Shown: piece after piece, positions 23,128-45,475 of the stretch | Layout: every line of letters begins with the position of its first letter | Position numbering within the stretch: position 1 is the first letter of the stretch | Source of the DNA: Shigella phage Tf | Length of the DNA stretch: 64,000 nucleotides | Sequence record: OR980947 | Reading direction: 5' to 3' (one strand) | The notes under the pieces: generated by a model | What the model saw: only the letters and a program-made list of their open reading frames with translations | Told to the model about the DNA's origin: nothing | The model's database searches: none | Position numbers and translations under genes: made by a program

Positions 23128-23640
23128 TCAAATTAGTTTTGCAAACTCTCCGTGGAGTTTAATAGCAGCTTCACAGTAAGCTTTATGGGCTTCTTCAGGC
23201 GTGTCAAACATACCAAGATGATAGTTTTTACCTTGTAAACGTATCATTGCTCGAAACCTTTTATTTATCTTCTGTACACCTTTTGGCAACCCAGATAGGG
23301 ACTTTCTTGACCGATTGCAAGAGTTTTGTGAAGCTGTACAAACCCTTAAATTCAAGTACCTATTGTCCCAACCATCCCCATTCTTATGGTCAACCTGTAA
23401 GGTTTTATCAGGCAGATATCCATCAATATACAAGATAACTAAACGATTTGCTTGGTAACTCCTTCCATCAATCAGCAACTGAACTGACTTGTGTCCATCA
23501 GTATTTGTTCTGTAGTTTCCAGCCCTCTTACCTCCAAATCTAGAGTTAAAATTTGCATTACCTTCTCTAAACTTCCAAGTAAAGACCCCTGTTTCGGGGT
23601 CGTAGTCCAATAGCTCCTTAAGACGAATTTCTGTAATCAT
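23128..23640 (-). CDS. HNH homing endonuclease with AP2-like DNA-binding domain (free-standing)
   Basis: LLDYDPETGVFTW N-terminus, HNH core VDHKNGDGWDNRYLNLRVCTASQN, AP2-like GMFDTPEEAHKAY; probable start at 23640 within tracked ORF ending 23679. Confidence 0.75.
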   Translation of the reverse strand: MITEIRLKELLDYDPETGVFTWKFREGNANFNSRFGGKRAGNYRTNTDGHKSVQLLIDGRSYQANRLVILYIDGYLPDKTLQVDHKNGDGWDNRYLNLRVCTASQNSCNRSRKSLSGLPKGVQKINKRFRAMIRLQGKNYHLGMFDTPEEAHKAYCEAAIKLHGEFAKLI

Positions 23641-23650
23641 TTCAACACCA

Positions 23651-24207
23651 TCAATGTACCTCATACCAGCTCTTACCAACCTTACCTGTGCCAGTTACAA
23701 GCGTCTCACTCTTCAAACCTAAATTCTTAGATGCCTGACCATACATCCAGTCAGTTATGGCTTTAACTTCTTGAGTCATACTTTCTGGGCATTCCCAACT
23801 GTTCTCATCGTGGTATGCCAGCAAAAGTCTAGCACCAATTGCTGGTTTCCGTCCATTTAATTTTGTCAACCCTTCTTCACATGCTCTTCTACAAGCAAGG
23901 TTAATTGCCTCGTTCTGAATCTGACTTTCCGAACCCATGAGCAAATAATTCAACAACTTATGTGGAGATTTACACCACAACCAAGCTCCAGCAACCTTTA
24001 CAAAACCCCCTTTAGAGATTGCAGCAGTCTTACCAAACACCTCTTCAAGAGCCTTTTTAGTTGCTTTGTAGTCAGCTTCCAAGTCATCTAGCAGCTTCTT
24101 AATCTTTGGCAAACGCACAAAGTAAGTCTGTTTAGTTAATGCACCTTCCTGAGTAGTGGCTGCCTTAATAGTTTTAGCAAACTTTTCATCACCTGCACCG
24201 AACAATA
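23651..24207 (-). CDS. DNA polymerase (family A), exon 2
   Basis: Begins with motif B continuation LFGAGDEK (T7 pol FLYGAGDEK) and contains motif C YHDE; in-frame stop immediately upstream. Confidence 0.8.
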
Positions 24208-24518
24208 CATCTGGTCAATACACTCGCAAGGTGTACCAGTTCTCTTATGAACTTCTCCGCATTTCTACGGAGTGTCGGACTATATCACGTAGTAGTAATA
24301 CTACCGTTGCACTTGGGAATGGTCATTAGCTTACCACCCTACTCTACTCAGTTCATACATTAAGTATGCTTTTCGATAGTCTCTGAACGTTTCTCTGTTA
24401 GGAATCTCTATAGTTATGTTATTTGCTTTAGGAGTCCTAACAGAGACTTCGCTGCTGATTACCATATCTTTACAGACTTAGGCTTCCAGCAATTCACAAC
24501 GTTTTACATGCGCCACTG
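24208..24518 (-). ncRNA. group I self-splicing intron (ORF-less) in DNA polymerase gene
   Basis: Conserved group I elements on the minus-strand RNA: P gaattgctggaa, Q aatcagcagc, R gttcagagacta, S gatatagtcc; 5' splice after U, terminal G at 3' end; joining exons gives IYALLFGAGDEK. Confidence 0.75.
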
Positions 24519-26694
24519 ACGCATAGATACCATTCTTAGCCTTCTTGCGGCCTTTACTAATCTCATGAAGAAGATTCTCATCCTGAGTAGCTCGACAAGT
24601 CAAGATGTCCTGCTCATCATTCAAGCTAAAGTAAATACTGTTCAGTGTATGTGCATCAGTCCCTGAATAGACAACGTACAGGTCATTCTCAGAGTCATAG
24701 CGCAGGTACTTATCAATCTCTGGGTTGAGGTACTCATCAAAATGTTTACAGTAATAACGTCCATCTTCTTGACGAATAAACTCAATCTCTTCTTTACCTT
24801 GCGTTACCGCTTTGGTGAACTCTTTATCACCCATAAAGTTACAAAGTAGAACTAACTGGGCTGAGTTCATATCAACAGAGACTACGTTGGTTCCCTCTTC
24901 ACAAATCCACACCTCCCTCATAGGTGCTCCATAGACAGCAGCACCAGACGGTACGTTTACAATACCATATTGTGTCATTCGTCCAGTTGAAGTACCAAAC
25001 ACCATTGCACCAGCACTAAGGCGACCATCAGGACGAATCTGGTTCAACCAACCTTTTTCACCATCCTTTGAGTTCTCAATAGTTCTGCGTCGGTGCATCA
25101 AAGTATAGTACTTAGCAATCTTCTGTCCAAGCTCACCTTCAATCGTATCATAAGAAGACTCAGTAAGTTTTGGTGAAGTACGGATTAAGCAAGGTTCAAG
25201 CAAATCTGTGTACTTCTTCACAGACCAGTTATGCTCAATGTACTGTACACCTTCATGTTCAACATAGCTCAAACCACACCGCTCAACCATTTCCTGCCAC
25301 TTAGGATGTTTTGTAATCATCTTTTTATTGTCTTTGAAACGACAAACTTTGACAGGGCGACCGTCTGAGTCTTTCTTGTAGTTCCAGTCATCTGGAATCC
25401 AACCAACTGATTTCAAGTAGTCTTTAACAACTGCTACCTGAGTCATACGAGAAACTTCAAAATCAATTGGTGTATATGGTGCATCAATCAAACCTGTGTA
25501 GCGACTTGACTCAAGTTCAAAGTGGTTAACAACGTGACTGTTATAGTACTTCACAGTTTTAACTGTTTTTACTGGCTTCCAGTCTTTGCATTTCTTACCA
25601 ATCTTTGCATTCAACTCATTGCAAATTGCACGAGCATCCTTCATTGCTACAAAGCCTTCCTTGTACTCTTCACCAGTTACAGAGTTGGTTGGTGTATAGC
25701 AATTTCTCTTTTCAATGTTAAAAATCTTTGTAGTTGGCTTACCAAATGGCTTGATTTCATATGTCTGCATCTCACCGTTACGTACCTGCTGACGATACTT
25801 TGTCTTAGGGTACTTGGTAATTCTTTTCAGTCCATCTGCATGACCAAATGTTTCAACATACTCATTCCAAGCTTTTGCAAACTCTTCTCCAGTGACTTTA
25901 CCTTTGGTCTTAATAGTTGGAGGAAGATGTGGTTCAACTTCTGAAGCAAGCTCATTAGTCAACTTGTCAAGTTCCTTTACATGGAACTCCATAAGTTCTT
26001 TATCAGCTTTCCAACCATTGATAGCCTGTTGACTCATCCAGAAAGATGTTTCTTTAGCTCGCATGTAGGTTTCATAAGTGTCTATGCCACACTTCTTAAG
26101 CTTGAGATACTCATTATCAAGTGCCCGTTTAGTTTTGGCGTTAATACGGATATCTTCTACAACACGAGTGAAGATTTCTGCATTCCACACACCCCAATGC
26201 TCAATCTCTGGTTTACGAACACCAACACGAGCACCCCATGCAGCCAAACCATGAGCACCTTTATAACCCTTTGGAGTTGGTCTATCCATCCACTGAACAC
26301 GAGACTGGATAAGAGAGTCCTGAAAGAAATTACTCCACGGTTTACACTTTGGGTTATCAAAGTTCCATAAATCAGGTGCAATGTGATTGAAAACCCACCA
26401 GTCATAACCGAGACCGTTATGGATGCAAAGACGTTTTGCCTTTAACGCAAATTCAACGCCTTCACGCAAACCACCTTTAATGTACTTGGTATACTTGTGA
26501 CCGAGGATAGGCTCATCTGTAAAGACCCATACAGGCGGCTCTTCATCGTCAGATTTATAGTCTGCGAAAGCCATTACGTGCACTTTAGTGAACTCAAGGA
26601 GTAAACCATCAGTTTCTGTATCACCAACCAAATGTAAGTTTTTAAAATCTACGTTTTCCATTTCTACTCCCTCTAAATCATTAACCTCATACAT
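24519..26694 (-). CDS. DNA polymerase (family A), exon 1 with 3'-5' exonuclease domain
   Basis: Exo I motif GDTETDG; pol motif A VSVDMNSAQL; motif B start RKKAKNGIYA; tracked ORF runs 13 codons into the intron before a stop; alternative start at 26661 with gaggga RBS. Confidence 0.8.
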
Positions 26695-26917
26695 TACTGC
26701 AAAAAATTATAAAAAGCAAGTTGACAATGCACTTGACAAGGTGTTAATCTTTGCGAAGTGGGTTTTTACTTAAAAGGTTACTTAACAGTTTAACTATACA
26801 GATACTTTAAAACTCTTAAAAGATTATTTAAAAGCTTTTAAAAAGCTTTAAAGTATAACGTATAGAATACGTTAAGATAAAAGATTAAAACTTAATAGTT
26901 ACTTAAAAGAGGCTTAC
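26695..26917. promoter_or_regulatory. AT-rich divergent intergenic control region with palindromes
   Basis: Lies between divergent gene blocks; palindromes aaagcttttaaaaagcttt (26831-26849) and aacgtatagaatacgtt (26857-26873); duplicated cttgacaa. Confidence 0.45.
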
Positions 26918-27340
26918 ATGCAGAAAATGTTTGTTCACCCAGACATAGCTGACTTTGTTAGAGCTTTGCAGAAGTTGGAAGAACTTGACATTGCTGCTCA
27001 ACGGGAATATGCTCACCATCACAGGAGAATGGTTGATATACAACATGAAATAGAGTTGTCTGAAAACTATGAAGATGACTTAAAATGCTCTGTATTTGAG
27101 CATATGAAAGATGTTGCTACAGCTAGACGTAAAGCCAAAGACACAGTTGCTTTACTAGATTCTCTTAAAAAGAGGTTGCAAAGTGGTACAGACCTGTGTA
27201 ATCTAGCGTCACTGATTAACGATGTTGAAACTTCTTGGGATAGACATTACTATCCACGTTCTGAAAAGACACTTGACTTTTCTTCATCCGAAAACTTAAA
27301 ATGTTCTAGAAAGAAACTTAACCAACTGAGAGAGAAATAA
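26918..27340 (+). CDS. hypothetical early protein
   Basis: RBS aaagagg upstream of ATG; 140 aa. Confidence 0.35.
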   Translation: MQKMFVHPDIADFVRALQKLEELDIAAQREYAHHHRRMVDIQHEIELSENYEDDLKCSVFEHMKDVATARRKAKDTVALLDSLKKRLQSGTDLCNLASLINDVETSWDRHYYPRSEKTLDFSSSENLKCSRKKLNQLREK

Positions 27341-27341
27341 T

Positions 27342-28142
27342 ATGAATATCGATGTAGAAAAGATGCTTGAAGAAAAAGGTGTTGATGAAGCATTCTTAAT
27401 CAATGCTGTAGAAAGCATGGCTATGATTCTTCGTGGTAACAACTACACAGAGCAGTTTATGCCTGCAAGCTATAACTTGCCTGAAGACAAGTCTGATAAC
27501 GGTGCTTTTGCAGAACAGGTCAACATGATGCTGTGTGACAAAAAACTTGCTTTAGCATCTATCGTTGTAGGTGTTGATGCTCTTGCAGAGTTCATTTTTT
27601 ATGAGATGCAGAAAAATGACTATATTGCCATGACCTCTGAAGAAAAAGACTCGCTACTACTCGCAGGTAATGATGAGCTAATTGACCTGTTAATTTCATC
27701 AACGAGTGCTGTTATGGCTGTTCTTGAGAAGCGCATGGAAGAGAAACTTTCACGATATGAAAAACTTGATTGGGGTGTAGAAGAACTAAACCCACGAATC
27801 AAGGAGATTATCCAGCAAACTAAAGAGTCTTTGGAAGAAGCTGTTGAAAATGACTCTGTAGCTGACATCGAACCACTTCAGGTGAAAGTTGCACTGATGA
27901 TTCCAGCTATCTCTACGATGATGAATATCGTTGCACTAATCCAACTGTCACAGATGATGGATGTGAGTATTGAGTTCATTGAAGAGATGACTGGTGGTGT
28001 CAGTATGCAAGCAATCAATGATGTTTTGGTGAACATTGGTGCTTCAATCATTGAAGAGAAACTACGCATTAACTTCGGTGATGATTTTGTGAAGCAAATC
28101 TCAGCTATGGCTGAAAAAGAGTATGCTGACCAACTGCACTAA
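27342..28142 (+). CDS. acidic hypothetical protein
   Basis: 266 aa, D/E-rich; start coupled to previous stop. Confidence 0.35.
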   Translation: MNIDVEKMLEEKGVDEAFLINAVESMAMILRGNNYTEQFMPASYNLPEDKSDNGAFAEQVNMMLCDKKLALASIVVGVDALAEFIFYEMQKNDYIAMTSEEKDSLLLAGNDELIDLLISSTSAVMAVLEKRMEEKLSRYEKLDWGVEELNPRIKEIIQQTKESLEEAVENDSVADIEPLQVKVALMIPAISTMMNIVALIQLSQMMDVSIEFIEEMTGGVSMQAINDVLVNIGASIIEEKLRINFGDDFVKQISAMAEKEYADQLH

Positions 28143-28203
28143 GTCTTTATAAATCTTACAAGCCTCCTTAGTTGGGGGCTTTTTAGCAATTAATGGAGAT
28201 AAA

Positions 28204-28947
28204 ATGAGTAGTATTATTGCATTTACTGGAAAGGCACGTTCTGGAAAAGACACCTCGTGTTCTATTGTGAAGAACATCTTAGAGGATGAGTATGGCTACA
28301 ATGTTGCTGTAATGGCCTTTGCAGACAACCTTAAGCTATCTGCATCAAAGATATTTGACCTGACTTGGAATGACCTGTATGGTGAAACTAAAGAGACTCC
28401 ACAGGTTTTTGACTTATCATATCCTGAACTGATGTTCAAAGTTACAGAAGCTATGGAGTTCACCTTCAAAGGTGAGCGTTACCATATGGATTTTAAGCTT
28501 ATGTCAGAACTAACCGGACGATTAATTATGGAATTGAAGAAGGTTGCTAAACCGACTCTATTGACACGTCTGGGATTTAGCAATAAGTATAAATTCTCAT
28601 CAAGACAAATTCAACAGATTTGGGGTACTGAAGTCATCCGTAAAGTTATGGGTGACAAATTCTGGGCTAAAGACCTTGAAAAACGAATGGCTCGCTTCTT
28701 TGAATCTTGTTCACTTATGAATCAAGAAGGTGTTGTTTTAATCAGTGATTTAAGATTTGATTCTGAAGCTGAGTGGCTGAGTAGATTTGCACACCAAACC
28801 ATTGAAGTAAAAAGAGACAATGTGGACAAAGTTTCGTCACATGTTTCAGAAAATGGGATTTCTACAAAATATGAGCGTGACATTATCCATAATAATGGTA
28901 CTCTTGCAGACCTTGAAAGTAAGCTAAGAGCTATCCTGAAGATTTAA
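28204..28947 (+). CDS. deoxynucleoside monophosphate kinase (T4 gp1-like)
   Basis: P-loop AFTGKARSGKDT matching T4 dNMP kinase GVKRSGKDT. Confidence 0.65.
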   Translation: MSSIIAFTGKARSGKDTSCSIVKNILEDEYGYNVAVMAFADNLKLSASKIFDLTWNDLYGETKETPQVFDLSYPELMFKVTEAMEFTFKGERYHMDFKLMSELTGRLIMELKKVAKPTLLTRLGFSNKYKFSSRQIQQIWGTEVIRKVMGDKFWAKDLEKRMARFFESCSLMNQEGVVLISDLRFDSEAEWLSRFAHQTIEVKRDNVDKVSSHVSENGISTKYERDIIHNNGTLADLESKLRAILKI

Positions 28948-28955
28948 AAGAGAGA

Positions 28956-29156
28956 ATGAAGATGAGAGTAAAAGACAATTTTAAAGTTATTGACCACCGT
29001 TTAGTGGAACTCTCATCTCTTTCCAATGAGGTAATGATTGAACGTCTTAAGAGAGTTGAATCACGAAGGAAAGAGATTGCAGATGAAATTCATGAACTGG
29101 ACAAGATTGAAAATGGATTGAAGGCAGAACTACAACGAAGAGGTGCTAATGTCTAA
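28956..29156 (+). CDS. small coiled-coil protein
   Basis: 66 aa ORF upstream of primase-helicase. Confidence 0.3.
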   Translation: MKMRVKDNFKVIDHRLVELSSLSNEVMIERLKRVESRRKEIADEIHELDKIENGLKAELQRRGANV

Positions 29157-31134: not shown

Positions 31135-31204
31135 TAGCTATAAAAGGGAGGGGTTCACACCCTTCTTTGAAGAAAAAAGTTTAAATAAATTTCAGGAAGA
31201 GTGT

Positions 31205-31233
31205 TTGACAAAGGTTGATAGGTTCTATAGAAT
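31205..31233 (+). promoter_or_regulatory. sigma70-like promoter (ttgaca-N17-tagaat)
   Basis: gtgtttgaca, 17-nt spacer, tagaat; sits inside a probably spurious tracked ORF. Confidence 0.55.
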
Positions 31234-31386
31234 GCTCTACATGAAATGTGATGGATGCGTTGAGGCAGAAGAAAAGTTCCATCACAGCATAATCACAGTC
31301 ACCATTACTATACCTAAACATAATATTGGTTGGCTCTTTATAATTAAAGAAAATGTGTTTGAATATCAAGTATATCGGAGAATATC

Positions 31387-31536
31387 ATGAAACACTCTAA
31401 AGCATTTGAAAAAGTTTTTGGGGATTCCTTAAAAGCCACTGCTGGTAAACCAGCAAAATACTATGAAGAAAAACGTGTAAGAACTGGAAAAACTGCACGT
31501 AAAGCAGCTTCTAAAGATAAGCACAACTTCCAGTAA
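31387..31536 (+). CDS. small basic protein (49 aa, not in ORF track)
   Basis: ATG preceded by ggaga RBS; MKHSKAFEKVFGDSLKATAGKPAKYYEEKRVRTGKTARKAASKDKHNFQ; flanked by two consensus promoters. Confidence 0.4.
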   Translation: MKHSKAFEKVFGDSLKATAGKPAKYYEEKRVRTGKTARKAASKDKHNFQ

Positions 31537-31543
31537 TTAGTGT

Positions 31544-31572
31544 TTGACAATAGAGTATCAACAAACTAGAAT
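31544..31572 (+). promoter_or_regulatory. sigma70-like promoter (ttgaca-N17-tagaat)
   Basis: gtgtttgaca, 17-nt spacer, tagaat upstream of the SSB-like gene. Confidence 0.55.
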
Positions 31573-31608
31573 TGGTACTCTTCATAAATTGAGATAGAGG
31601 TTTAAATA

Positions 31609-32466: not shown

Positions 32467-32483
32467 TCTCTAAAAGTTACTTT

Positions 32484-32513: not shown

Positions 32514-32528
32514 ATATGGAGAGTCACA

Positions 32529-33569
32529 ATGGAGAAGTATACGTTAACAAAACTTCCCGATTCAGTTACACATGTCTTTATTGACTCTGACAGTATTGCC
32601 TATAAAGGTGCTTGTGTAGTTGAGAAAGCAAAATATAAATACGTCAATAAACTCACAGCAGAAGAATCTGAATCATTTGATAATGCGAAAGATGCTGCAA
32701 GATGGTTAGCAGACCAGAGAATCCTTGTGGAAGAACTTGGCCTGACATTTGATGAAGATGAATGGGAAAGACAGACTTGGAAAGAAGCTAAGAGTGAAAA
32801 AGAAGCTATCATGGCTACTCAACAGGTGCTTCAGGAATGGCTTAAGGTTGTTGGTAAAGAGAGAACTTGGGTAGGTTATTTAACAGAGAAAGGTGTGCAT
32901 AAACATAAAGACATTAAAGGTCTTGAGCACCAATATCAAGGGAACCGTAAAGATGCTGTCACACCAACACACTTAGTCGCTTGTCGTGAATACCTTCTGT
33001 CAAGACCAGAGTTCAAGCTCTTAAGGGGCGGCTTCGAAGCCGATTCAATCGTAATTGCTAAAGCTGAAAAGATGGGTAAGAAAGCTGCTCTGATGAGTAT
33101 TGACAAAGACCTTCGACAAGCTGAAGGAACTTATTGCATTGATATGACTTATGAAAAGTCACCACTAATTTTTATCGCTGATAATAATGTTGGTGATATC
33201 TGGGATTGCCCTATCAAGTCAAAACCAAAAGCTGCAAAAACAGTTGGTGTAGGTTTTAAATTCTTGTGCTATCAGGCTGTTGCTGGAGATAATGCAGACA
33301 ACTACTTCGGCCTTAAAGGTGCTGGAAAAGTAGCTGTGATGAATGCTTTAGATGGTAAAGAGACCTATAAAGAGTGTCTTGACGCTATCTATGAACTCTA
33401 TGCTAAAAAAGACTCTTACACCTATGTATCATGGGATGGACAGACTGTTACAAAGACACCGTTAGAGCTAATGGAACAGCATTTCTTCCTAGCTTATCAA
33501 GAAAGAAATCCAAAAGATAATTTCTCTTTTAAGAAATATAATTGGGAGCCGTGTATGAATGAAGATTAA
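32529..33569 (+). CDS. 5'-3' exonuclease / flap endonuclease (T7 gp6-like)
   Basis: SIDKDLRQ and YQAVAGDNADNYFGLKGAG align to T7 gp6 ISCDKDFK and FQTIKGDITDGYSGIAGWG. Confidence 0.6.
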   Translation: MEKYTLTKLPDSVTHVFIDSDSIAYKGACVVEKAKYKYVNKLTAEESESFDNAKDAARWLADQRILVEELGLTFDEDEWERQTWKEAKSEKEAIMATQQVLQEWLKVVGKERTWVGYLTEKGVHKHKDIKGLEHQYQGNRKDAVTPTHLVACREYLLSRPEFKLLRGGFEADSIVIAKAEKMGKKAALMSIDKDLRQAEGTYCIDMTYEKSPLIFIADNNVGDIWDCPIKSKPKAAKTVGVGFKFLCYQAVAGDNADNYFGLKGAGKVAVMNALDGKETYKECLDAIYELYAKKDSYTYVSWDGQTVTKTPLELMEQHFFLAYQERNPKDNFSFKKYNWEPCMNED

Positions 33570-34056
33570 AGGATTTGGCAATTGTCCCACCTATGGTCAT
33601 TGGGTATCTTTATGTGGGGAAGTTGACCCCACTAAACATTTTGGCTTTGTCTATTTAGTGCACTGTAAGAAAACTGGGCAATACTATATAGGAAGGAAAC
33701 AGTTTAACAGTGTTACCAAAAGAAAAGTTGCTGGGAAGACTCGGAAGAAGGTAGTCACTAAGGAAAGTGATTGGATGACTTACGAGACTTCTTCTGAGTA
33801 TATTAAAAAAGATATTGAGAGCTTTGGAAAAGAATTTTTTGACTTTTACATTATCCAAACCTACTACACAAAAGGTGGCCTAGTTTATGGTGAAGCAAAC
33901 CTTCAACATAAGTTCGATGTAATGACAAAAAGGATTGACTCGAAGCTCAGACTCTTCTACAATGCCAATATTGCAGCAATTAAGTTTATCACTAAAGAAA
34001 CTTATGAAGATGCTGAAAAAAGAATCCATAAGGTAATGAAAGCAAATTGTGCTTGA
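33559..34056 (+). CDS. GIY-YIG homing endonuclease (free-standing)
   Basis: GIY-YIG motif FVYLVHCKKTGQYYIGRK near the N-terminus; overlaps 3' end of exonuclease gene. Confidence 0.6.
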   Translation: MKIKGFGNCPTYGHWVSLCGEVDPTKHFGFVYLVHCKKTGQYYIGRKQFNSVTKRKVAGKTRKKVVTKESDWMTYETSSEYIKKDIESFGKEFFDFYIIQTYYTKGGLVYGEANLQHKFDVMTKRIDSKLRLFYNANIAAIKFITKETYEDAEKRIHKVMKANCA

Positions 34057-35735: not shown

Positions 35736-37970
35736 ATGATTAAGACAATTAAAAAATCAAACGGTACAGTAGTAAACTTTGACCCAGAAAGACTGAATAA
35801 GTGGGCATCATGGGCAGATAAGCGTGGTATTATCTGGTCAGAAGTCACTATGGAAGCCATGAAACGTGTCTATGAAGGTTGCACTACAAAAGAGATGCAC
35901 CAAGCCATGATTGATGTTTGTGTTGATAAACAAACTCAAGAGTACTCAGATATGGCTGGACGGCTACTTCTGGGGATTATCTACAAAGAAGCCTTTGGAG
36001 GCTTTACTAAGGTTCCTACACTGGTTACCTTCGTTAAAAATATGGAGAGAGCAGGACTTTGGGAGAAGATGGACTATTCACAAGAAGAGCTTGAATATCT
36101 GCAAGGTTACATCGTACACTCAAAAGATATCTCTTACGGTTATGCAGTCTTGAAACAGTTCAGAGACAAGTACGGTATCCGTGATATTAAAACTGGAAGA
36201 CTTTTTGAGTCACCACAGTTTATGTTTATGGGTATGGCTATGAAAGCCTTTGAGAAGCAACCAAAGCACCGTAGACTGCAAGATGTTATCAAGCTGTACA
36301 CTTACCTATCTGACCTAAAGATTAACGCCCCTACACCTTATTTAAACGGTTTAAGAGCTACTAAATCAGGTTATGCGTCATGTTGTTTGATTAAGGCAAA
36401 TGATACTGCTGAATCACTCGGTATTGCTGCAAAGGTTGCTTATGATATGACTACAAAGCAAGCTGGTATCGGTATGCTGATGGAGACTCGTACTATTGGT
36501 GATGGTATCCGTCAAAACACCATTGAGCACATGGGTAAACTACCTTATTATAAGCTTGTACGTTCATCTGTAGAGGCAAATAAACAGAAGAGTCGTGGTG
36601 GCTCAGCTAATAACTTCTACACTGCTCTAGACCCGCAGATTGAAGATTTACTGCGTTTGAAGCACCCTACAACGGTCCCTTCTAAACGTATTAATGAGAT
36701 GGACTACTCATTCGGTACAAACGATTATTTCTGGCAGTGTGTTCAATATGATACAGACTGGTTGCTATTCTCTTACAAGGATGCACCAAAACTCTATGAC
36801 ATGTTCTACACAGCATCTGCTGATGAGTTTGCTATGGCAGTTGGTCACGCAGTACATTCAGGTGTTAAGCACAGAAGAGTAAAGGCTCGTGAAATTGCTA
36901 AACTATTTATTCAACAGCGTTATGCAACAGGTCGTGTGTATCCATTCTTCACGAATAATGCGAACACACATACACCATTTAAAGAACCATTGAAGATGTC
37001 AAATCTTTGTATGGAGATTGTGTTGCCAGTATATGGCTTTGAGAAGGAGACAGACCTTTACAGAGATGATGCTGTGAAAGAGGATGGTGAGGTAGCTCTT
37101 TGCTTCCTAGCTAGTTTGGTTGCAGGGAGAATTTCAGAAGATGAATACGCTGACGTTGCTTATTATGCTCTTGCAATGGTTGACTCCGTTATTGACCTTA
37201 TGGATTATCCGTATCCGTCGATGCGTAACCATGTTCAGAAGCGTCGTTCTGTTGGGATTGGCCTTACAAATGTGGCTCATTACCTTGCGAAGAACTACGT
37301 GAACTACTCTTCAAGAGCAGGTAAGACGAAGCTTCATGAGCTTGCTGAAATGCACTCTTACTACTTACACGAAGCTTCTTTAAGACTTGCTAAAGAACGT
37401 GGTGTGCCTGAGTATATGCAGTTCACTAAGTATCCTGAAGGTTGGGTTCCTCCAAAGACAGCTAACAAGAAGATTGATGAAAAGCATGATGCAAAACTAC
37501 GATATGATTGGGATGACTTAGCACAACGTATCAAAGAAAATGGTGGAATCCGAAACTCTGTATTAGAAGCTTACATGCCTAATGAGAGTTCTTCACTAGC
37601 AACTAATACGACAAATGGCTTGTACCCAATTCGTGACTTTATTTTAACTAAAAAGTCTGCAACTGGTAACGTACTGTTTATTGTTCCAGATTATGAAGAG
37701 TTGAAGTATGTCTATGAAATTGCTTGGGATATCGACACCTTTGACCTAATTGATTGTTATGCAATTGTTCAAAAGTTCACTGGTCAAGCTATCTCTTCAG
37801 ATTTCTATGTTGACTATGCAAAGTCTAAGAAGGTATCATTGGCTCAAGCTCTGAAGTACATGATTTATGCCAACTCGGTAGGTATGAAAACCATGTACTA
37901 CCTTAACAGTCGCATTGGTGTAGGTAAATCTGCACTGCAAGATGCTTATTGCGAGGGTTGTGGTGTTTAG
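35736..37970 (+). CDS. nrdA: ribonucleotide reductase class Ia large subunit
   Basis: 744 aa; active-site region SNLCMEIV; followed by nrdB and a glutaredoxin. Confidence 0.85.
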   Translation: MIKTIKKSNGTVVNFDPERLNKWASWADKRGIIWSEVTMEAMKRVYEGCTTKEMHQAMIDVCVDKQTQEYSDMAGRLLLGIIYKEAFGGFTKVPTLVTFVKNMERAGLWEKMDYSQEELEYLQGYIVHSKDISYGYAVLKQFRDKYGIRDIKTGRLFESPQFMFMGMAMKAFEKQPKHRRLQDVIKLYTYLSDLKINAPTPYLNGLRATKSGYASCCLIKANDTAESLGIAAKVAYDMTTKQAGIGMLMETRTIGDGIRQNTIEHMGKLPYYKLVRSSVEANKQKSRGGSANNFYTALDPQIEDLLRLKHPTTVPSKRINEMDYSFGTNDYFWQCVQYDTDWLLFSYKDAPKLYDMFYTASADEFAMAVGHAVHSGVKHRRVKAREIAKLFIQQRYATGRVYPFFTNNANTHTPFKEPLKMSNLCMEIVLPVYGFEKETDLYRDDAVKEDGEVALCFLASLVAGRISEDEYADVAYYALAMVDSVIDLMDYPYPSMRNHVQKRRSVGIGLTNVAHYLAKNYVNYSSRAGKTKLHELAEMHSYYLHEASLRLAKERGVPEYMQFTKYPEGWVPPKTANKKIDEKHDAKLRYDWDDLAQRIKENGGIRNSVLEAYMPNESSSLATNTTNGLYPIRDFILTKKSATGNVLFIVPDYEELKYVYEIAWDIDTFDLIDCYAIVQKFTGQAISSDFYVDYAKSKKVSLAQALKYMIYANSVGMKTMYYLNSRIGVGKSALQDAYCEGCGV

Positions 37971-38283
37971 TTTTAACAACTATGAGGGTCGTAAAAGACC
38001 CTCTAAAAATAACTTTGGAGAGACCATGAAAGATTTAATAGAAAAACATGAGCGGCCTATATACTTGCTCCACAAGCCTCGGAAAACGATGTACTATGTG
38101 GGTAGCACAGATATGATGATAAAACAAAATGATGACTCATGGGTTGCTGGTATCTCTTACATCTCTACAGCAGATGGTAAAATCTACGCAAGACCTTATG
38201 AGATGTTTAACAAAGAAAATTGGGAAGTTCTAGACCGAAAACAAGCCTTAGAAATGATAAAGAAAGGAGAAATCACACTATGA
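37942..38283 (+). CDS. hypothetical protein
   Basis: 113 aa ORF between nrdA and nrdB. Confidence 0.3.
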   Translation: MLIARVVVFSFNNYEGRKRPSKNNFGETMKDLIEKHERPIYLLHKPRKTMYYVGSTDMMIKQNDDSWVAGISYISTADGKIYARPYEMFNKENWEVLDRKQALEMIKKGEITL

Positions 38284-39353: not shown

Positions 39354-39595
39354 TGACTTATGTAATTTACTCCAAAACTGGATGCCCTCAGTGTGAGACT
39401 GCAAAGAATTTTGCGAAAGCTCGTGGTATTGACCATGTTGTGAGAATGTTAGGGCAGGATTATGAACTGTCAGACCTGATGGACATTGCACAGATGCCAG
39501 TTCGTCAGATGCCATTCATCATGAAAACTGACGGTCAAAACTTAAAACCTGTTGGTACGCTACAGAATTTTATGGCAGAGGTGAATAATGCTTAA
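39353..39595 (+). CDS. glutaredoxin-like protein (NrdH-like)
   Basis: Thioredoxin-fold CPQC active site at N-terminus; start overlaps nrdB stop. Confidence 0.6.
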   Translation: MTYVIYSKTGCPQCETAKNFAKARGIDHVVRMLGQDYELSDLMDIAQMPVRQMPFIMKTDGQNLKPVGTLQNFMAEVNNA

Positions 39596-39794
39596 ACGCA
39601 TTTGGGAAGGTTTGGTTGTTGATGCACCAGCTATTGTGATTGGTATGCTTATTGTTAACCTGTTTACTGACTTTGAACAAGGTTCATTGTTTGGAGCTAT
39701 GTTACTATGGGTTATCTTTGAAATATTAGAGATACAGTTAGGCATCACTGAAAAACTAAGAGAACTCTTTTCGAAGTTTTCTAAAAAGATTTAA
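39588..39794 (+). CDS. small membrane protein
   Basis: 68 aa, two hydrophobic segments; terminator follows. Confidence 0.3.
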   Translation: MLKRIWEGLVVDAPAIVIGMLIVNLFTDFEQGSLFGAMLLWVIFEILEIQLGITEKLRELFSKFSKKI

Positions 39795-39799
39795 AATGA

Positions 39800-39824
39800 A
39801 AGGGTCTCTTCAGAGACCTTTTTA
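39800..39824 (+). terminator. rho-independent terminator
   Basis: aagggtctct tc agagacctt followed by ttt. Confidence 0.55.
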
Positions 39825-39842
39825 GCATGTAAAGGGGCAATA

Positions 39843-41039
39843 ATGAACAAAGTACAGATTATTAAAAAGAATGGCTCACTTGAAGAACCTGATATCAAAA
39901 AAGTTTTAGCGGCAGTAACAAAGTCAGCTAACAGGGTTGGATATAAAGAACTGCCACCAGATGTTACCCAAGCTCTTGAGTCAGCATTTATGAGGATTCT
40001 GGTAAAATCCACTAAGCAGAATAACTTACTCGTTTCAGTAAATGATATTCACAGTATTGTTGAGGGTGCTTTGGCAGAAGTCAATCACGAGATTTATGAG
40101 TCTTACTCAACATATAGAAATTATCGTAAAGAGGTTGCTCAAAATTGGGATGAGCTTTACCAAAAGACTAGAGACACACTCTTCTTAGGTGACCGTGAAA
40201 ATGCTAACTTTGACAGCAGTTTAATTTCTACAAAAGGTTCAATTATTCGTGGTTACCTGACTAAAGAAATCTTTAAACAGTACCATTTAACACCAGAGGA
40301 ACTTGAAGCCATTGAAAAAGGGTTTATCTACATCCATGACTTAAGAGACCTGATTTTTGGTGGTATCAACTGTTGCCTGTTTGACATTGGTAAAGTGCTG
40401 AAGGGTGGCTTTGAAATGTCTGGCATCGAATACTGTGAACCAAAGTCTGTGCTGTCGGCCTTGCAGGTTATTGGTGACGTAGTTCTTTCAGCAACTGCAC
40501 AGCAATTTGGTGGCTTTACTTTAGCAGAGATTGATAAGGTACTTGTACCGTATGCTAAGAAGTCTCTACGCTATCATGCTGAGAAAGCAGCATCTTATGG
40601 TATTCCTAAAGAACATTACCACAATTATGTCATGGAGCAGTTACAGATTGAACTAACTCAAGGTTTCCAGTCACTTGAAATGAAACTAAATACTGTACCT
40701 TGTAGCCGTGGGGATTTTGCATTTACAACTTTGACATTCGGGTTACTTGATTCAGATATGTCTAATGAAGATAACCGACTGCAATACATGATTGCAAGTA
40801 CTCTCCTAGATGTTCGTATGAATGGACAAGGCAAGAGTAAAAAACCTGTTGTATTCCCTAAACTGGTTTATATTTATGACCAGAAGAGACATGATGAGAA
40901 TATCTGTCAAGGTCACCTGTACAGTAAAGCTATTGAGTGTTGCTCTAAAGCAATGTACCCAGATTTCTTAAGTGTGTCTGGTCATGGTGCTGTAGCAGAG
41001 GCTTTTGAGCGTTCTGGTAAGGTAATTTCACCGATGGGT
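39843..41039 (+). CDS. nrdD: anaerobic ribonucleoside-triphosphate reductase, exon 1
   Basis: NrdD-like sequence YIHDLRDLIFGGINCCLFD; exon ends ...ISPMG, stop follows within intron. Confidence 0.8.
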
Positions 41040-41781
41040 TAACAAGCTCTATAGCTCATCTAAAACGTGCCTAAACAGGGAAACTCTACAGATGTAGACA
41101 ATCCTGTGCTAAATGATGTACGATGTAAGAAACTATACAACATAGGAGTATTACATGCCAAATTATCATGTTACTGAGGACGGAAGGGTCTTTAGGAAAA
41201 ATGGTGTAGAACTTACGCAGTGGAAATCCAACACTGGTTATATGAAAGTAAGGTTTTATGGAAGGAAGAATCGTGACATGTATGTCCATAGGTTAGTTGC
41301 TGAAAAGTATGTACCTAACCCTAACAATCTTCCAATTGTAAAACACAAAGATGATAACAAACTGAACAACCATGCTTCTAACTTAGAATGGGGAACTCAT
41401 TCTGAGAATGTTAAAGAAGGCTATGAGAATGGTTGCTACAAGTTTTGTAAGCGTTCATATGCTGTGAAGGCTACACATAAAGTGACAAAAGAAGTTATTG
41501 TTGCTAAGTCAATACGAGAGTTATCCAATATACTCGGATATAATCGCAAGACTATCTCTTCAATATTGAAGGGTGTAAAAGAACATAATAACTTTGAACA
41601 TGAATTTGAATACATCTAAATGCCGAACGACTAACCGTGATGAATGTAGCGGTGTAGGGTCAAGCGACTCGAAATGGTACGCTACTTAGAAATAAGTAGA
41701 AGATATAGTCTGGACTTACTGGCGACAGTAAGCAGCTTGAATAAAGCGGGGTAAGCTTAGCGAACTTACCTGAACAACAAG
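41040..41781 (+). mobile_element. group I intron in nrdD carrying an HNH homing endonuclease ORF
   Basis: P4 pairing cagggaaa / caatcctgtg upstream of the ORF; R-like cgaacgactaac and S-like agatatagtct downstream; 5' splice after U, 3' terminal G; joined exons read ISPMG-CRAFLSPYHNEYGEEFYVGRANIGAASLNLP. Confidence 0.7.
41155..41619 (+). CDS. HNH homing endonuclease (intron-encoded)
   Basis: HNH motif HKDDNKLNNHASNLEWGTHSENV; taggag RBS; located in intron loop. Confidence 0.75.
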   Translation: MPNYHVTEDGRVFRKNGVELTQWKSNTGYMKVRFYGRKNRDMYVHRLVAEKYVPNPNNLPIVKHKDDNKLNNHASNLEWGTHSENVKEGYENGCYKFCKRSYAVKATHKVTKEVIVAKSIRELSNILGYNRKTISSILKGVKEHNNFEHEFEYI

Positions 41782-42729
41782 TGTAGAGCATTTTTATCAC
41801 CATACCATAACGAATATGGAGAAGAGTTTTACGTTGGTCGTGCTAATATTGGTGCTGCATCTTTGAACTTACCAATGATTTACCAGTATTCTAAAGAGAA
41901 TGGTTTAGATTTCTGGAAAGAGCTTGATAAGTACCTAGAAATGATTCGCAGCTTCCATAAGAAACGTTACGAAATGATTGCCAATATGCCAGCAAGTTCT
42001 AACCCTCTTGCATTCACACAAGGTGGTCTGTATAAAGGGACTAAGAAGCCTACTGACAAGGTTGGTTGGGATATTGTGAAATCCTTCACAGCTTCTTTTG
42101 GGGTTACTGCTCTTGATGAGTTATCTGTTCTTGCTGAAGGTAAACGACTTCATGAAGTTGGAAGTTCTAGTTTTGCATACGATGTTCTGGCATACATTAA
42201 CATGAAAACTGAAGAGTTTAAGAATGAAGATGGCTTCCTGTATGCAGTATATGGCACTCCAGCAGAGTCATTGTGTGGAACTCAGCTAAAACAGTTCAGA
42301 GATATGTTTGGTGTTATTAAAGGCGTTTCTGACAAGGAATACTTTACAAACAGCTTCCATATGAATGTTGCAGCAAACATCTCACCATTTGAGAAGCAGG
42401 ACTTAGAAGAGCCATTCTTCCATATCTGTAGAGGTGGCAGAATCCAGTATGTAAGGGTAGCTAACCCAGAAAACTTACCAGCACTTAAGAGTTGTATTAC
42501 CAGAGGGATGTTGAAGGGTTTTTATCAGGGACTTAACTTTGACTTAGCAATCTGTGAGCATTGTGGTAACAGACCAAAGGCTGATGTTGAAGAGTGTGAG
42601 GTTTGCCATTCACATGATATCTCTGTGATTAACAGGGTGTGTGGGTACTTGTCATTCACAAAAATTAAAGGTCAGTCTCGAATGAATGACGCTAAGATGG
42701 CAGAAATTAAGGATAGAGTCTCTATGTAA
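41782..42729 (+). CDS. nrdD: anaerobic ribonucleoside-triphosphate reductase, exon 2
   Basis: Zinc site CEHCGN...CEVCHSHD and glycyl-radical motif RVCGYLSF at C-terminus. Confidence 0.8.
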   Translation, partial: CRAFLSPYHNEYGEEFYVGRANIGAASLNLPMIYQYSKENGLDFWKELDKYLEMIRSFHKKRYEMIANMPASSNPLAFTQGGLYKGTKKPTDKVGWDIVKSFTASFGVTALDELSVLAEGKRLHEVGSSSFAYDVLAYINMKTEEFKNEDGFLYAVYGTPAESLCGTQLKQFRDMFGVIKGVSDKEYFTNSFHMNVAANISPFEKQDLEEPFFHICRGGRIQYVRVANPENLPALKSCITRGMLKGFYQGLNFDLAICEHCGNRPKADVEECEVCHSHDISVINRVCGYLSFTKIKGQSRMNDAKMAEIKDRVSM

Positions 42730-42738
42730 AACTTGACA

Positions 42739-42778
42739 AGGTGATGTGGGTCTTGATAGGCTTACATCACCTTTTTTA
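42739..42778 (+). terminator. rho-independent terminator
   Basis: aggtgatgt ... acatcacct followed by tttttt. Confidence 0.55.
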
Positions 42779-42883
42779 TTGGATGTTAGACATGGCAGAG
42801 AGTATTATTGGGTTGTTCATAGGTTCTGTCTTACTAGGGTTCTTTTTAGGACTCTCTTATTGTGAGTTGAGAGATAAGTTAAA

Positions 42884-43084
42884 ATGTTTAAAATACCAAA
42901 AACGTTGATATACATACTCCATATTCTAATCTTCTTCTTTGGGGTTAGTGTTATGGTATGGGGTTTTTCAGACCCACAATGGGGTTTCTCATATCATGGT
43001 CAGATGGATTTATGGTCATGCTTCAAACCATTTTTAGGGTTAGCCATAGCATTCAGTACATTACCAACTAAGGTGAAATTATGA
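42884..43084 (+). CDS. small membrane protein
   Basis: 66 aa hydrophobic ORF. Confidence 0.3.
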   Translation: MFKIPKTLIYILHILIFFFGVSVMVWGFSDPQWGFSYHGQMDLWSCFKPFLGLAIAFSTLPTKVKL

Positions 43085-43296
43085 TTAAGTTGAACCAAAA
43101 ACAGTTAGAGTGGATTAAAGATAACGCTTCAGAGTACGGCTCTTGTGAAAAGAATCATGTAAGATACTCAACATTCCGCACGACATTTACATTGTACATC
43201 AGTGACAACGTTCTAAGTAAATCCATAGAAGATGGTGCAGCGTTGCCTAATGAGTTGCTTGACAAATTAGTTGTAGTCACTGGAACTTGGTCTTAA
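43081..43296 (+). CDS. hypothetical protein
   Basis: 71 aa ORF. Confidence 0.3.
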   Translation: MIKLNQKQLEWIKDNASEYGSCEKNHVRYSTFRTTFTLYISDNVLSKSIEDGAALPNELLDKLVVVTGTWS

Positions 43297-43535
43297 GAAG
43301 ACGGTCACGAACTATCTAACGATGTTGTCTTCTACAGTATTGATAACATTATGAATCCAGAGTACATTATGCTAATGACTTGTGCACAAGACTGTGTTCC
43401 ATTACAAAACTTCATTAAAGAGCACTGTGAAGAGTTTATTACTAAACAGGTTCCTTGTCAGGTAGTGTTTGAATGAGTAAAACAATTCGAAGAAAAGGTT
43501 TAAAGAACATTTATATTTATTGGTGAGGTAACTAG

Positions 43536-44021
43536 ATGAATTACATGGAGATTAGACCATTTGACACGGCTAATGGTGAAGGGGTTCGTGTAAGCCTCTT
43601 CGTAGCTGGCTGTAAACATCACTGTGAAGGCTGCTTTAACAGGGAGTCTTGGAAGTTTAATGCTGGTAAAGAGTTTACTTATGCAAACCTCTACGGCATC
43701 ATTAAATTAATGGATGATGAAGCCATCAGTGGGTTGTCAATACTTGGTGGAGAGCCTCTTGATGACAGAAACATTCAAGAAGTTACCAATATATGCAAAC
43801 GTATTAAAACCGTTTACCCAGAAAAATCTATCTGGCTCTGGACAGGTTTTCAGTTACACGAAAAAATTCACCTAGATGTTATGAAATATGTTGACGTGGT
43901 GATTGATGGTAAGTATGATTCTTCTAAACCAACAGTTAAACCATATCGTGGTTCTGATAACCAAAACCTCTGGAGAAAAGAGTATGGATGGCAAGGCGAT
44001 TGTCAATGGCGAGCAGAGTAA
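43536..44021 (+). CDS. nrdG: anaerobic ribonucleotide reductase activating protein (radical SAM)
   Basis: Cysteine cluster CKHHCEGCFN near N-terminus; size ~160 aa; follows nrdD. Confidence 0.75.
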   Translation: MNYMEIRPFDTANGEGVRVSLFVAGCKHHCEGCFNRESWKFNAGKEFTYANLYGIIKLMDDEAISGLSILGGEPLDDRNIQEVTNICKRIKTVYPEKSIWLWTGFQLHEKIHLDVMKYVDVVIDGKYDSSKPTVKPYRGSDNQNLWRKEYGWQGDCQWRAE

Positions 44022-44361
44022 ATCTCGTCGTAAAATTGGCTACGGTAAAGGTGAGATAATGATTATCTCTTTTAATAGTGCTTTATTAGGTACTTACAAA
44101 GTTAAGGCCGAGCTACTTGATGAATGGAGAAAGTATACAAACTCCCTTTTCGGTAATGTTGGAATGGAAGCCTTAGCAGAGCTTGAGAAGGCTGGAACAT
44201 TTGAAGTTGTCGGTAAAGGTAACTACACAATGTTCTACAAAACAAATTTAAACGTTGGTGACAGTATTGTTGGTGTCACTGAAGAAGAACTTAAAACATT
44301 TTGTGAAAAGATTGAGAGAGATGCGAAATGGGACTCTGGAGCAGTTTTAAATCAAAAGTAA
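43984..44361 (+). CDS. hypothetical protein
   Basis: ATG at 43984 within tracked ORF 43903..44361; overlaps nrdG 3' end. Confidence 0.3.
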   Translation: MDGKAIVNGEQSKSRRKIGYGKGEIMIISFNSALLGTYKVKAELLDEWRKYTNSLFGNVGMEALAELEKAGTFEVVGKGNYTMFYKTNLNVGDSIVGVTEEELKTFCEKIERDAKWDSGAVLNQK

Positions 44362-44585
44362 AAGCAGCACTAGCTTCATTAGGTATGCTCACTGGTGTTG
44401 ATGTGACTCATCTTATGCAGAACTTCAAAATGGATGAGAAGCTGGCTAATGAGATTATGAAAAGTATCTATGTAGGCCGTGGCAAAGGTGGTAAGAAACA
44501 AGCCCACCGTCCGTCTGGTGCAGCAGCTATTAAACGAGCAGCTAAGAAAGCTCGTAACCGTAAACGTAATAAGAAGGCTAAATAA
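44328..44585 (+). CDS. small highly basic protein
   Basis: C-terminus AAIKRAAKKARNRKRNKKAK. Confidence 0.3.
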   Translation: MGLWSSFKSKVKAALASLGMLTGVDVTHLMQNFKMDEKLANEIMKSIYVGRGKGGKKQAHRPSGAAAIKRAAKKARNRKRNKKAK

Positions 44586-44587
44586 TC

Positions 44588-44908
44588 ATGAGCAAAGTTT
44601 ATAACACTCGTAAATTACAGATTTTCGTACTGTGCCAGTTTATGGCTAAAGAGTATAACTACTACTATTGTGGCACAGGGTTCATTAGTGATAATGACGG
44701 CTCATACCTCCCATTCAAAGAAGCTGTAAAACTCTTTAATGAAGAGAAAAGCCCTAAGAAAGATATTGAAAAGGTTAAGCTAACCTACAGCAAGAAAGAT
44801 AAGAAGATTATCTGCCTAGATAACTTTGTAAAAGTTACTGGAGAAGCAAAAGAGTTTATGGATGAGAGTGAAATCTCATTCACAAGCATCTTGAAAGTAG
44901 CTCAGTAA
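44588..44908 (+). CDS. hypothetical protein
   Basis: 106 aa ORF followed by hairpin and T-run. Confidence 0.3.
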   Translation: MSKVYNTRKLQIFVLCQFMAKEYNYYYCGTGFISDNDGSYLPFKEAVKLFNEEKSPKKDIEKVKLTYSKKDKKIICLDNFVKVTGEAKEFMDESEISFTSILKVAQ

Positions 44909-44959
44909 ACAGATACTATAAGGGGACTGTAAAGGTTCCCTTTTTATTTTGGAGATAAT

Positions 44960-45475
44960 ATGTATCTGTCAAATCTAAAACGTTCGGCTGCAATGTCAGT
45001 GTTAAGGCTCAGCTTTGAGGAACGTCAAGAGTTCATTGACTCCCACCAATATGACCCTTCCAACTCCAATCACATGATTCTCTGGAATCGTGAGAGTACT
45101 CGTGAAAGAGCATTATTCCGATATTACCCATACTACACCATAGACAACCTGTATGAGTGTTTTGTTGTGAAGAACACCATTACAGTACTCAATAAACTTT
45201 GCAGATATACAGGTAGTCAATCCTTCACATTAGGCCACCACAAACCTGTTACAAAGGGTGGTGAGCACCACTGTGCAAACTGGTTTATCCAGACTAAACT
45301 TGATAACCAGAAGCAAGGGGATAATCTTCTAAGCACTCCTAAGATGACCTACGAAGAGCAAGAGAAATATATCAAAAATAATATGCCAGATGTGCTTGAC
45401 AACAACTATACAGATTTGGCAATATCTCTCCTGTTGAAGTTCGAGACAGTTTATAGGGCAACTTACAATGGCTAA
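44960..45475 (+). CDS. HNH-motif nuclease family protein
   Basis: HNH-like core GHHKPVTKGGEHHCANWFIQTKLDNQ. Confidence 0.4.
   Translation: MYLSNLKRSAAMSVLRLSFEERQEFIDSHQYDPSNSNHMILWNRESTRERALFRYYPYYTIDNLYECFVVKNTITVLNKLCRYTGSQSFTLGHHKPVTKGGEHHCANWFIQTKLDNQKQGDNLLSTPKMTYEEQEKYIKNNMPDVLDNNYTDLAISLLLKFETVYRATYNG

Follow-up and report, generated by a model that had tools for sequence, protein, structure and literature searches.

Shigella phage Tf (sequence record OR980947) is a Felixounavirus, i.e. a Felix O1-like myovirus. The stretch of its genome analysed here, 64,000 nucleotides (nt) in length and referred to as the window, shares about 94-95% DNA identity with the phages Alf5, Mushroom, NJ12 and warpig. 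We are concerned with the introns and nuclease genes situated among its replication and nucleotide-metabolism genes, and above all with a group I intron without an open reading frame (ORF) that interrupts the gene for DNA polymerase, and a free-standing homing endonuclease gene (HEG) that adjoins the 3' end of this gene. The gene order is that of Alf5, with thymidylate synthase, dihydrofolate reductase, ligase and DNA polymerase on the minus strand, and primase/helicase, exonuclease, nrdA, nrdB, glutaredoxin, nrdD, nrdG and phosphoribosyl pyrophosphate kinase on the plus strand. Matches to the 24-kb region come from 342 phage records, of which all but a few belong to Felixounavirus or other Ounavirinae, and about 300 relatives served as the comparison set. 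A first-pass annotation of the sequence had named four ORFs of the homing endonuclease type in this region and had read their density as active selfish-element traffic around essential replication genes. All four ORFs are present and intact where it had placed them; the ORF-less intron of the polymerase gene, which is the most informative element of the region, was missing from its list.

The polymerase gene, its intron and the adjoining endonuclease gene

The polymerase locus comprises the following features, and the position directly after the polymerase gene, which is empty in some genomes, is called the slot in the following:

24519..26694, minus strand: DNA polymerase exon 1 (ORF list and alignment to Alf5)
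24208..24518, minus strand: ORF-less group I intron, 311 nt (Rfam RF00028; boundaries from the intronless Alf5 allele)
23651..24207, minus strand: DNA polymerase (family A) exon 2 (Pfam DNA_pol_A, 1.4e-6, profile positions 218-381; Alf5 alignment)
23651..23890, minus strand: last ~80 polymerase codons, co-inherited with the slot occupant (codon comparison among genomes)
23128..23679, minus strand: free-standing HNH_3-AP2 homing endonuclease gene, 'type A' (Pfam HNH_3 and AP2; PHROG 99)

The Rfam model RF00028 matched positions 24255..24530 of the minus strand over the full model length with 62.9 bits (gathering score 50; E=1.4e-13), and this was the sole match in an Rfam scan of the whole window. 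The intron is inserted in polymerase motif B (RKKAKNGIYA/LLFGAGDEK, with the slash marking the site), and excision of 24208..24518 restores the reading frame and yields ..GIYALLFGAG.., the same as in the uninterrupted Alf5 protein. On the DNA level, exon 1 ends with ..TATGCGT and exon 2 starts with TATTGTTCGG, giving the spliced product ..KNGIYALLFGAGDEK.., as in Alf5. The junctions (..GCGU/CAGUGG and ..CAGAUG/UAUUG) show a U preceding the 5' splice site and a terminal intron G. Two potential pairings are readable from the sequence: P1, between the 5' exon (AUGCGU) and GCGCAU at intron positions 6-11, which includes a U.G wobble at the splice site, and P10, between CAGUG at intron positions 1-5 and the 3' exon (UAUUG). 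All intron-containing alleles have the exon flanks TATGCGT/../TATTGTTC needed for these two pairings; at the insertion site of intronless alleles mostly TATGCA CTG CTGTTC is found. We infer from the sequence that the intron is self-splicing, and Mushroom and warpig are viable isolates with the same intron in this essential gene. In many records the polymerase gene is annotated as two genes.

Among the relatives the intron occurs in forms of 268 nt, about 802 nt and 311 nt, and other genomes lack it altogether. The 268-nt form has a minimal hairpin (CCUCUUAAGAGG), the ~802-nt form has a longer stem (UCUCUGUUAG/CUAACAGAGA) holding an ORF of 160 amino acids (aa) with a Pfam Endonuclease_7 match (1.1e-19; EndoVII), and compensatory changes are found at two base pairs between the intron forms. 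The 311-nt intron of the window is a deletion derivative of the ~802-nt EndoVII-type intron: it equals the 802-nt form minus the ORF, which was deleted between the imperfect direct repeats GACTCCTAAAaCAAA, located ahead of the ribosome-binding site, and GACTAcCTAAGCAAA, which constitutes the last codons of the EndoVII ORF. A remnant of these last codons (..AGCAAATAA) is still contained in the 311-nt intron; the endonuclease gene was therefore lost and not simply never present. In phage VpaE1 a 22-nt deletion breaks the frame of the intron EndoVII ORF, and this degenerating HEG is an intermediate between the intact 802-nt intron and the 311-nt form. Copies of the intron share 96-100% identity, and the polymerase exons around them only 74-89%, which indicates that the intron has spread horizontally.

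We take the insertion site to be approximately residue 764 in E. coli Pol I numbering, based on an alignment to motif B of T7 gp5 and E. coli Pol I. The intron insertion sites listed for family-A polymerases are 674, 676 and 881 (PMC3428280); the site in the window differs from these, and motif B would represent a fourth one. A description of this insertion site, of the EndoVII and ORF-less intron forms or of a link to a downstream HNH gene was not found in the literature.

The HNH-AP2 gene lies directly 3' of the polymerase gene, as the first-pass annotation had proposed, and extends further than the 23128..23640 given there, position 23640 being an internal ATG. The longest ORF starts with a TTG at 23679, overlapping the polymerase stop codon (23651..23653); the ATG at 23664, annotated as start codon in Mushroom, is the likely start and gives a 14-nt overlap with the polymerase gene. 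The encoded protein matches Pfam HNH_3 (E=2.6e-11; 43.4 bits, above the cutoff of 24.8) and PHROG 99, 'HNH endonuclease' (6e-61). Of 38 intronless loci, 18 have an empty slot and 20 an occupied one, and the occupants comprise at least five HNH_3+AP2 types that are 40-57% identical to type A of the window; every HNH allele examined is a full-length ORF in which neither domain is damaged.

Genomes with an empty slot show at least 92% identity to the window up to about position 23900, followed by 70-80% over the last ~80 polymerase codons. In genomes lacking the HNH gene about half of these codons differ from the window, mostly synonymously, and they are nearly identical to the window in the type-A genomes Alf5, Mushroom, L005 and L040 and in the type-B genome L004 (numbers are those of our comparison set); the type-A genome L008 is an exception. 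As the last ~80 codons match slot occupancy in most cases, the HNH gene mostly travels with the polymerase 3' end. Judged from sequence, this co-inheritance is the pattern that would be expected of a free-standing HEG targeting a neighbouring conserved gene, and 23651..23890 is a candidate target or immunity region of the HNH enzyme.

Two further observations concern the vicinity of this gene. In the 5' part of the HNH-AP2 ORF, at 23584..23601 (minus strand), there is a terminator-like hairpin (GACCCCGAAACAGGGGTC) with a T-rich tail, which coincides with a conserved DPETG coding motif; a promoter and terminator scan gave results at chance level, and T4 mobE is regulated via an internal terminator (PMC2790892). 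Between the HNH gene and the ligase gene (~22200..22700, minus strand) small hypothetical ORFs are located that show 48-75% identity or are absent, a further mosaic hot spot among otherwise 95%-identical genomes.

ORF-less introns and the occupied slot

We classified 54 non-redundant loci from IMG/VR, metagenomes and GenBank by intron form and slot occupancy. The HNH gene was present at all ten loci with an ORF-less intron, at 20 of the 38 intronless loci and at one of the six loci with an EndoVII intron (one-sided Fisher p=0.0019, uncorrected for relatedness). The ten ORF-less loci span two intron forms, and their HNH alleles are 40-100% identical to the protein of the window:

Window, Mushroom: 311-nt intron, type A HNH
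NJ12: 311-nt intron, ~43%-identical HNH type
S19cd: 310-nt copy of the same intron, ~53%-identical HNH type
BPS17W1, REP9: 268-nt intron, ~49%-identical HNH type
phiWec177, 35FD: 268-nt intron, ~43-44%-identical HNH type
tootiki, fKMPT1: 268/267-nt intron, ~40%-identical HNH type

In an evenly spaced sample of 60 out of 184 GenBank records, nearly every record with an ORF-less intron also matched the HNH gene. The one exception, Salmonella phage GEC_vB_BS, is without exon 2 and the greater part of the HNH gene. A query built to recover the combination of an ORF-less intron with an empty slot found no such record; the same query recovered about 25 records with an EndoVII intron and an empty slot, about 15 with both nucleases and about 15 with an ORF-less intron and the HNH gene. 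As to GEC_vB_BS, in record MW006475.1 exon 1 and the 311-nt intron are followed by only ~100 nt up to the next conserved gene, an older record of this phage (MG969407.1) seems complete, and the gap is probably an assembly artefact or the mark of a defective genome.

A well-described counterpart is found in phage T4, where homing in trans of the nrdB intron, whose own endonuclease I-TevIII is defunct, depends on MobE (Wilson & Edgell 2009; PMC2790892). In both cases a free-standing HNH gene adjoins an essential gene holding an intron without a working endonuclease. The T4 intron persists by co-conversion with the neighbouring HEG, and by analogy we propose that the intron in the window may do likewise. 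In contrast to T4, the host gene in the window is a family-A DNA polymerase gene and not nrdB, the HEG encodes an HNH_3-AP2 protein and is located 3' of the host gene, and the intron's own EndoVII-type endonuclease has been deleted fully, whereas I-TevIII is truncated.

According to this proposal, the HNH-AP2 enzyme would most likely introduce a nick or cut in or near the polymerase 3' end of genomes whose slot is empty, and recombinational repair would then copy the HNH gene together with flanking polymerase sequence. If the conversion tract extended far enough upstream, the ORF-less intron, which is 557 nt away from the HNH gene, would be copied too, which would amount to trans-homing; with the EndoVII gene gone, only introns within this co-conversion distance of a driving HEG would be expected to persist. 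Trans-homing would explain why ORF-less introns are found only with an occupied slot, and the pairing of intron and HNH gene suggests MobE-like trans-homing as the simplest reading. The stronger claim, that the intron can survive the loss of its EndoVII gene only where an HNH-AP2 gene occupies the slot, so that a free-standing enzyme in several allelic forms would serve as surrogate drive, is tentative, and we hold it at somewhat less than even odds.

Several points weigh against the proposed arrangement. HNH-carrying intronless genomes (Alf5, L004, L005) share the exact insertion-site sequence with genomes that have neither element; the intron is therefore not needed to protect an HNH-carrying genome, and we have downgraded the idea that the intron acts as a shield by disrupting the HNH target, since the insertion site of these genomes is that of naive ones. 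Moreover, this comparison does not reveal the HNH target, and the one proposed above is a candidate only. The 311-nt intron occurs together with type A as well as with the ~43%-identical and the ~53%-identical HNH types; the linkage is therefore loose and does not represent inheritance as one block. The association statistics ignore phylogenetic non-independence, and there are only about six independent combinations of intron form and HNH type. Finally, the AP2 match of the window's own protein (E=9.6e-6, 26.3 bits) is below the cutoff of 33.3, with 38-54 bits in five of seven same-slot homologues.

The association might also be a mere by-product of shared ancestry and local recombination, with HNH-AP2 perhaps being a decaying or non-homing passenger. 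The small number of independent lineages, the close relationship and heavy mosaicism of the genomes, and the missing correction for phylogeny are in line with this explanation. We nevertheless consider it improbable, because the association spans both intron forms and several HNH types, because a search that did find about 25 records with an EndoVII intron and an empty slot provided no counter-example, and because no examined HNH allele shows signs of truncation or loss of a domain.

A free-standing HEG directly downstream of a DNA polymerase gene is also a feature of the T3 gene 5.3/phage PhiI I-TslI system, reportedly described by Bonocora and Shub in 2009; F-CphI and the psbA intron of cyanophage S-PM2 are a further case of collaborative homing. 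In systems of the T3/PhiI type the polymerase gene of relatives contains a group I intron with or without an internal HEG, as in the relatives of phage Tf. The pathway of homing in trans, or collaborative homing, including the S-PM2 F-CphI/psbA case, has been reviewed (PMC3984707), and a strict version of it would have HNH-AP2 cut the motif B insertion site, with the intron being mobilised by the enzyme and at the same time protecting its host genome from it. An ORF-less intron next to a free-standing HEG is indeed the architecture described for collaborative homing (PMC3984707), it is consistent with this that ORF-less introns are strictly associated with the HNH gene, and an insertion site within an extremely conserved motif is a good HEG target. 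However, the T3/PhiI and F-CphI enzymes cut the intron insertion site, whereas about 20 HNH-carrying intronless loci keep this site in the state found in naive genomes, and a collaborative enzyme would cut its own genome there. In addition, the sequence co-inherited with the slot is that of the polymerase 3' end, downstream of position ~23890, and not the insertion site. Strict collaborative homing is thus unlikely here, and less likely than trans-homing of the MobE type.

If MobE-type trans-homing applies, every stage in the life cycle of an intron and its HEG, i.e. empty site, empty intron, intron with HEG, frameshifted HEG, deleted HEG and free-standing helper, would be represented together among more than 300 phages that have been sequenced and can be cultured. 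The modest novelty of the region is this pairing of polymerase intron and HNH-AP2 gene as a probable new natural case of trans-homing. The locus would offer an easily testable natural case in which a free-standing endonuclease maintains an ORF-less intron next to it, with many allelic combinations available in easily grown coliphages and Salmonella phages.

The group I intron in nrdD

The second intron of the region is located in nrdD and contains the HNH gene that the first-pass annotation had correctly described as intron-encoded:

39843..41039, plus strand: nrdD exon 1 (Pfam ATP-cone and NRDD; alignment to the uninterrupted Felix O1 nrdD)
41040..41781, plus strand: group I intron in nrdD, 742 nt (intronless Felix O1 allele; homology to group I introns)
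41155..41619, plus strand: intron-encoded HNH homing endonuclease gene (Pfam HNH_3, 2.6e-10, and weak NUMOD1; PHROG 59, 1.3e-43)
41782..42729, plus strand: nrdD exon 2 (Pfam NRDD, 2.6e-59, and Gly_radical)

The nrdD gene of Felix O1 lacks exactly these 742 nt, and the junctions read ..ATGGGT/ and ..AACAAG/TGTAGAGC. In a scan by E-value, RF00028 matched on either side of the ORF with 36.9 and 17 bits, below the gathering score of 50; the model copes poorly with ORF-bearing introns. The 3' half of the intron has ~71% identity with the T4 td intron and 78% with the intron in nrdD of phiS, a T4-like phage, with which it shares the insertion codon and covarying stems. The intron with its HNH gene was found in 59 records, most relatives including Felix O1 are intronless, and in ECOH1 and S19cd the intron has been kept with the ORF deleted in frame. 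This is a classical mobile group I intron with an intact HNH gene, and its enzyme would be expected to cut intronless nrdD alleles in co-infection, whereupon repair would copy the intron in.

Elements of this kind are known. The nrdD introns of T4-like phages (Krischvirus phiS/JSE) and the split nrdD of UAB_Phi87, HB-2014 and JH2 (PMC4837284) use the same insertion site, before the Cys-Arg-x-Phe-Leu codons, and like that of the window carry an HNH ORF in an intron loop. Splitting of nrdD by a HEG has been described for several Felix O1-like members (PMC4837284), from which the window shows no substantive difference, so that it adds a further copy of a described element. Felix O1-like phages have been described as differing mainly by the insertion of HEGs, also into conserved genes, and by their deletion (PMC3728262); Felix O1 itself was reported to contain six HNH copies but no introns (PMC3185647), and a genome paper lists two introns found by a non-coding RNA scan as well as three variable HNH regions (PMC9951933). 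The elements of the region are thus of known kinds and mostly already annotated, and both the richness in HEGs and the split nrdD have been published for the genus. The HEG-driven mosaicism around polymerase and nrdD will distort phylogenies inferred from these marker genes.

The GIY-YIG gene and ORF 44960..45475

The two remaining ORFs differ from the introns and the HNH-AP2 gene in their distribution:

33559..34056, plus strand: single-domain GIY-YIG (SegE-type) nuclease gene (Pfam PF19835 SegE_GIY-YIG, 1.7e-28, 99.8 bits)
44960..45475, plus strand: conserved 171-aa protein with HNH-like (H-N-N) motif (PHROG 3500; motif conservation; AlphaFold2 model)

As had been noted before, the GIY-YIG gene overlaps the end of the exonuclease gene, the overlap amounting to 11 nt with a 346-aa ORF (32529..33569), which is annotated as exodeoxyribonuclease in relatives and has no Pfam match. 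The GIY-YIG domain covers residues 21-138 of the 165-aa protein (homologues have 132-180 aa), residues Y32, Y43, G45, E112 and N135 are invariant, and Pfam detected no second, DNA-binding domain; a PDB sequence search gave nothing meaningful. In each of the 297 matching records, which include Mooglevirus and Suspvirus (~78% DNA identity) and Erwinia phages (~68%), the gene occupies the same position, with no presence/absence polymorphism among close relatives in these records, and it diverges in step with its flanks. Single-domain homologues with ~35% identity occur in about 400 cyanomyovirus records (tblastn) and are near-universal in cyanomyoviruses. The protein shares with the Seg-type GIY-YIG homing endonucleases of T4 (PF19835) a catalytic domain in which Tyr, Tyr, Glu and Asn are conserved; in contrast to these elements it consists of the catalytic domain only, has one fixed position subfamily-wide and is widespread in cyanomyoviruses. 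With respect to its size and the missing DNA-binding domain, it is presumably nearer to small non-homing GIY-YIG nucleases such as T4 endonuclease II.

Members of this family (also PHROG 447) are often annotated as 'NAD synthetase' in Ounavirinae, cyanophages and rhizobiophages, although Pfam supports a GIY-YIG nuclease domain only, a mis-naming that matters for annotation practice. Between the exonuclease and GIY-YIG genes an extra HNH/AP2 gene of ~490 nt is present in ULIM8, HY02, O157 typing phage 11, SWJM-02 and LF82P2, and the end of the exonuclease gene has been replaced in FSL SP-010, NS7 and EC6; in the window the slot between these genes (33559..33569) is empty.

ORF 44960..45475 matches no Pfam family at threshold; it matches PHROG 3500 ('unknown function', 2.6e-91) and, weakly, the HNH family PHROG 2214 (3e-4). 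It contains the motif tLGH[HW]xPxxxGGxHxxxNWfIQxxxxN, in which H93, G100, G101 and N107 are invariant and H103, W108, Q111 and N116 nearly so in an alignment reaching down to 23% identity, and which represents an H-N-N version of HNH without zinc-binding cysteines. The family is small (18 matches in a set of 5.8 billion sequences; 16 representatives among 1.84 billion sequences clustered at 50% identity). An AlphaFold2 model from a deeper alignment (predicted local distance difference test, pLDDT, 91) shows a strand-strand-helix arrangement at residues 89-119 (strands 89-93 and 108-112, helix 113-119); a model from a shallow alignment of 13 sequences with identities of 74% or more (pLDDT 52.7) was discarded. 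A similarity to engineered protein A repeat constructs in the PDB (E=1e-5 summed over repeats) is regarded as spurious, each stretch being insignificant. Nuclease folds, which the first-pass annotation had assumed for all four ORFs, are thus supported by domain searches for three of them, and for ORF 44960 the HNH-like motif is conserved and a nuclease fold weakly supported.

ORF 44960 was found in 269 records, 225 of which cover at least 80% of the query, and it diverges parallel to its flanks, down to 75% identity in Mooglevirus and Suspvirus. In BPS17L1 it is deleted together with the following 92-aa ORF (44960..45746), and in SP4 SHa-2019 the place of both is taken by two ORFs with the annotation adenine-specific DNA methyltransferase; this swap of a nuclease-like gene for a methylase may hint at a role related to DNA modification or defence.

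The GIY-YIG gene and ORF 44960 are same-position genes across Ounavirinae; active traffic is therefore not supported for these two, and both turn out to be conserved core genes, a finding that the first-pass annotation itself had named as speaking against it. The traffic it had proposed does apply to the polymerase and nrdD loci, where there is clear turnover among relatives: each of the two introns, like the occupant of the HNH-AP2 slot, occurs in some relatives and is missing from others. On sequence evidence, the GIY-YIG gene and ORF 44960 are best read as resident phage nucleases, putatively domesticated or with a housekeeping role, and neither has the presence/absence pattern expected of an element that is homing at present.

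One might argue instead that each of the four nuclease genes encodes a homing endonuclease active at present and that they are so dense because invasion around the replication genes is still going on. All four contain nuclease domains or motifs, the catalytic residues of the GIY-YIG protein are conserved, the absence of ORF 44960 from a few genomes (BPS17L1, SP4 SHa-2019) is what a nearly fixed HEG would show, and in some relatives further HEGs have been inserted, one such place being that between the exonuclease and GIY-YIG genes. This is distinctly improbable in view of the constant position of the GIY-YIG gene as far as the Erwinia phages, its divergence in step with the flanks, its single 165-aa domain and its near-universal cyanomyovirus homologues, as well as the parallel divergence of ORF 44960 and its flanks. 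We favour, with a probability of roughly 0.65, the view that the selfish and nuclease elements of the region are in three evolutionary states, namely a mobile nrdD intron, a linked pair of polymerase intron and HNH-AP2 gene, and two fixed or nearly fixed nuclease-like genes. Its third part is weakened by ORF 44960, which is absent from a few genomes, so that 'fixed' is not absolute, and which gave no significant profile or structure match, the top Foldseek matches being mostly HNH domains and none of them significant.

No further paralogues of the five nuclease proteins were found in the window by tblastn, and Pfam scans of 20 other ORFs of the window revealed no additional HEG. In T4, mobE is located between nrdA and nrdB. 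An ORF between nrdA and nrdB in the window (37942..38283) contains a weak GIY-like stretch and was dropped, as Pfam support is absent.

Beyond these elements, the GC skew of the window is negative at ~18-26 kb, which corresponds to the minus-strand gene block from thymidylate synthase to DNA polymerase, and the polymerase gene (minus strand) and the next gene (plus strand) are divergent at ~26.7-26.9 kb. A 261-aa ORF at 59771..60556, with no connection to the endonucleases and introns, encodes a Macro (ADP-ribose-binding) domain (Pfam, 1e-7).

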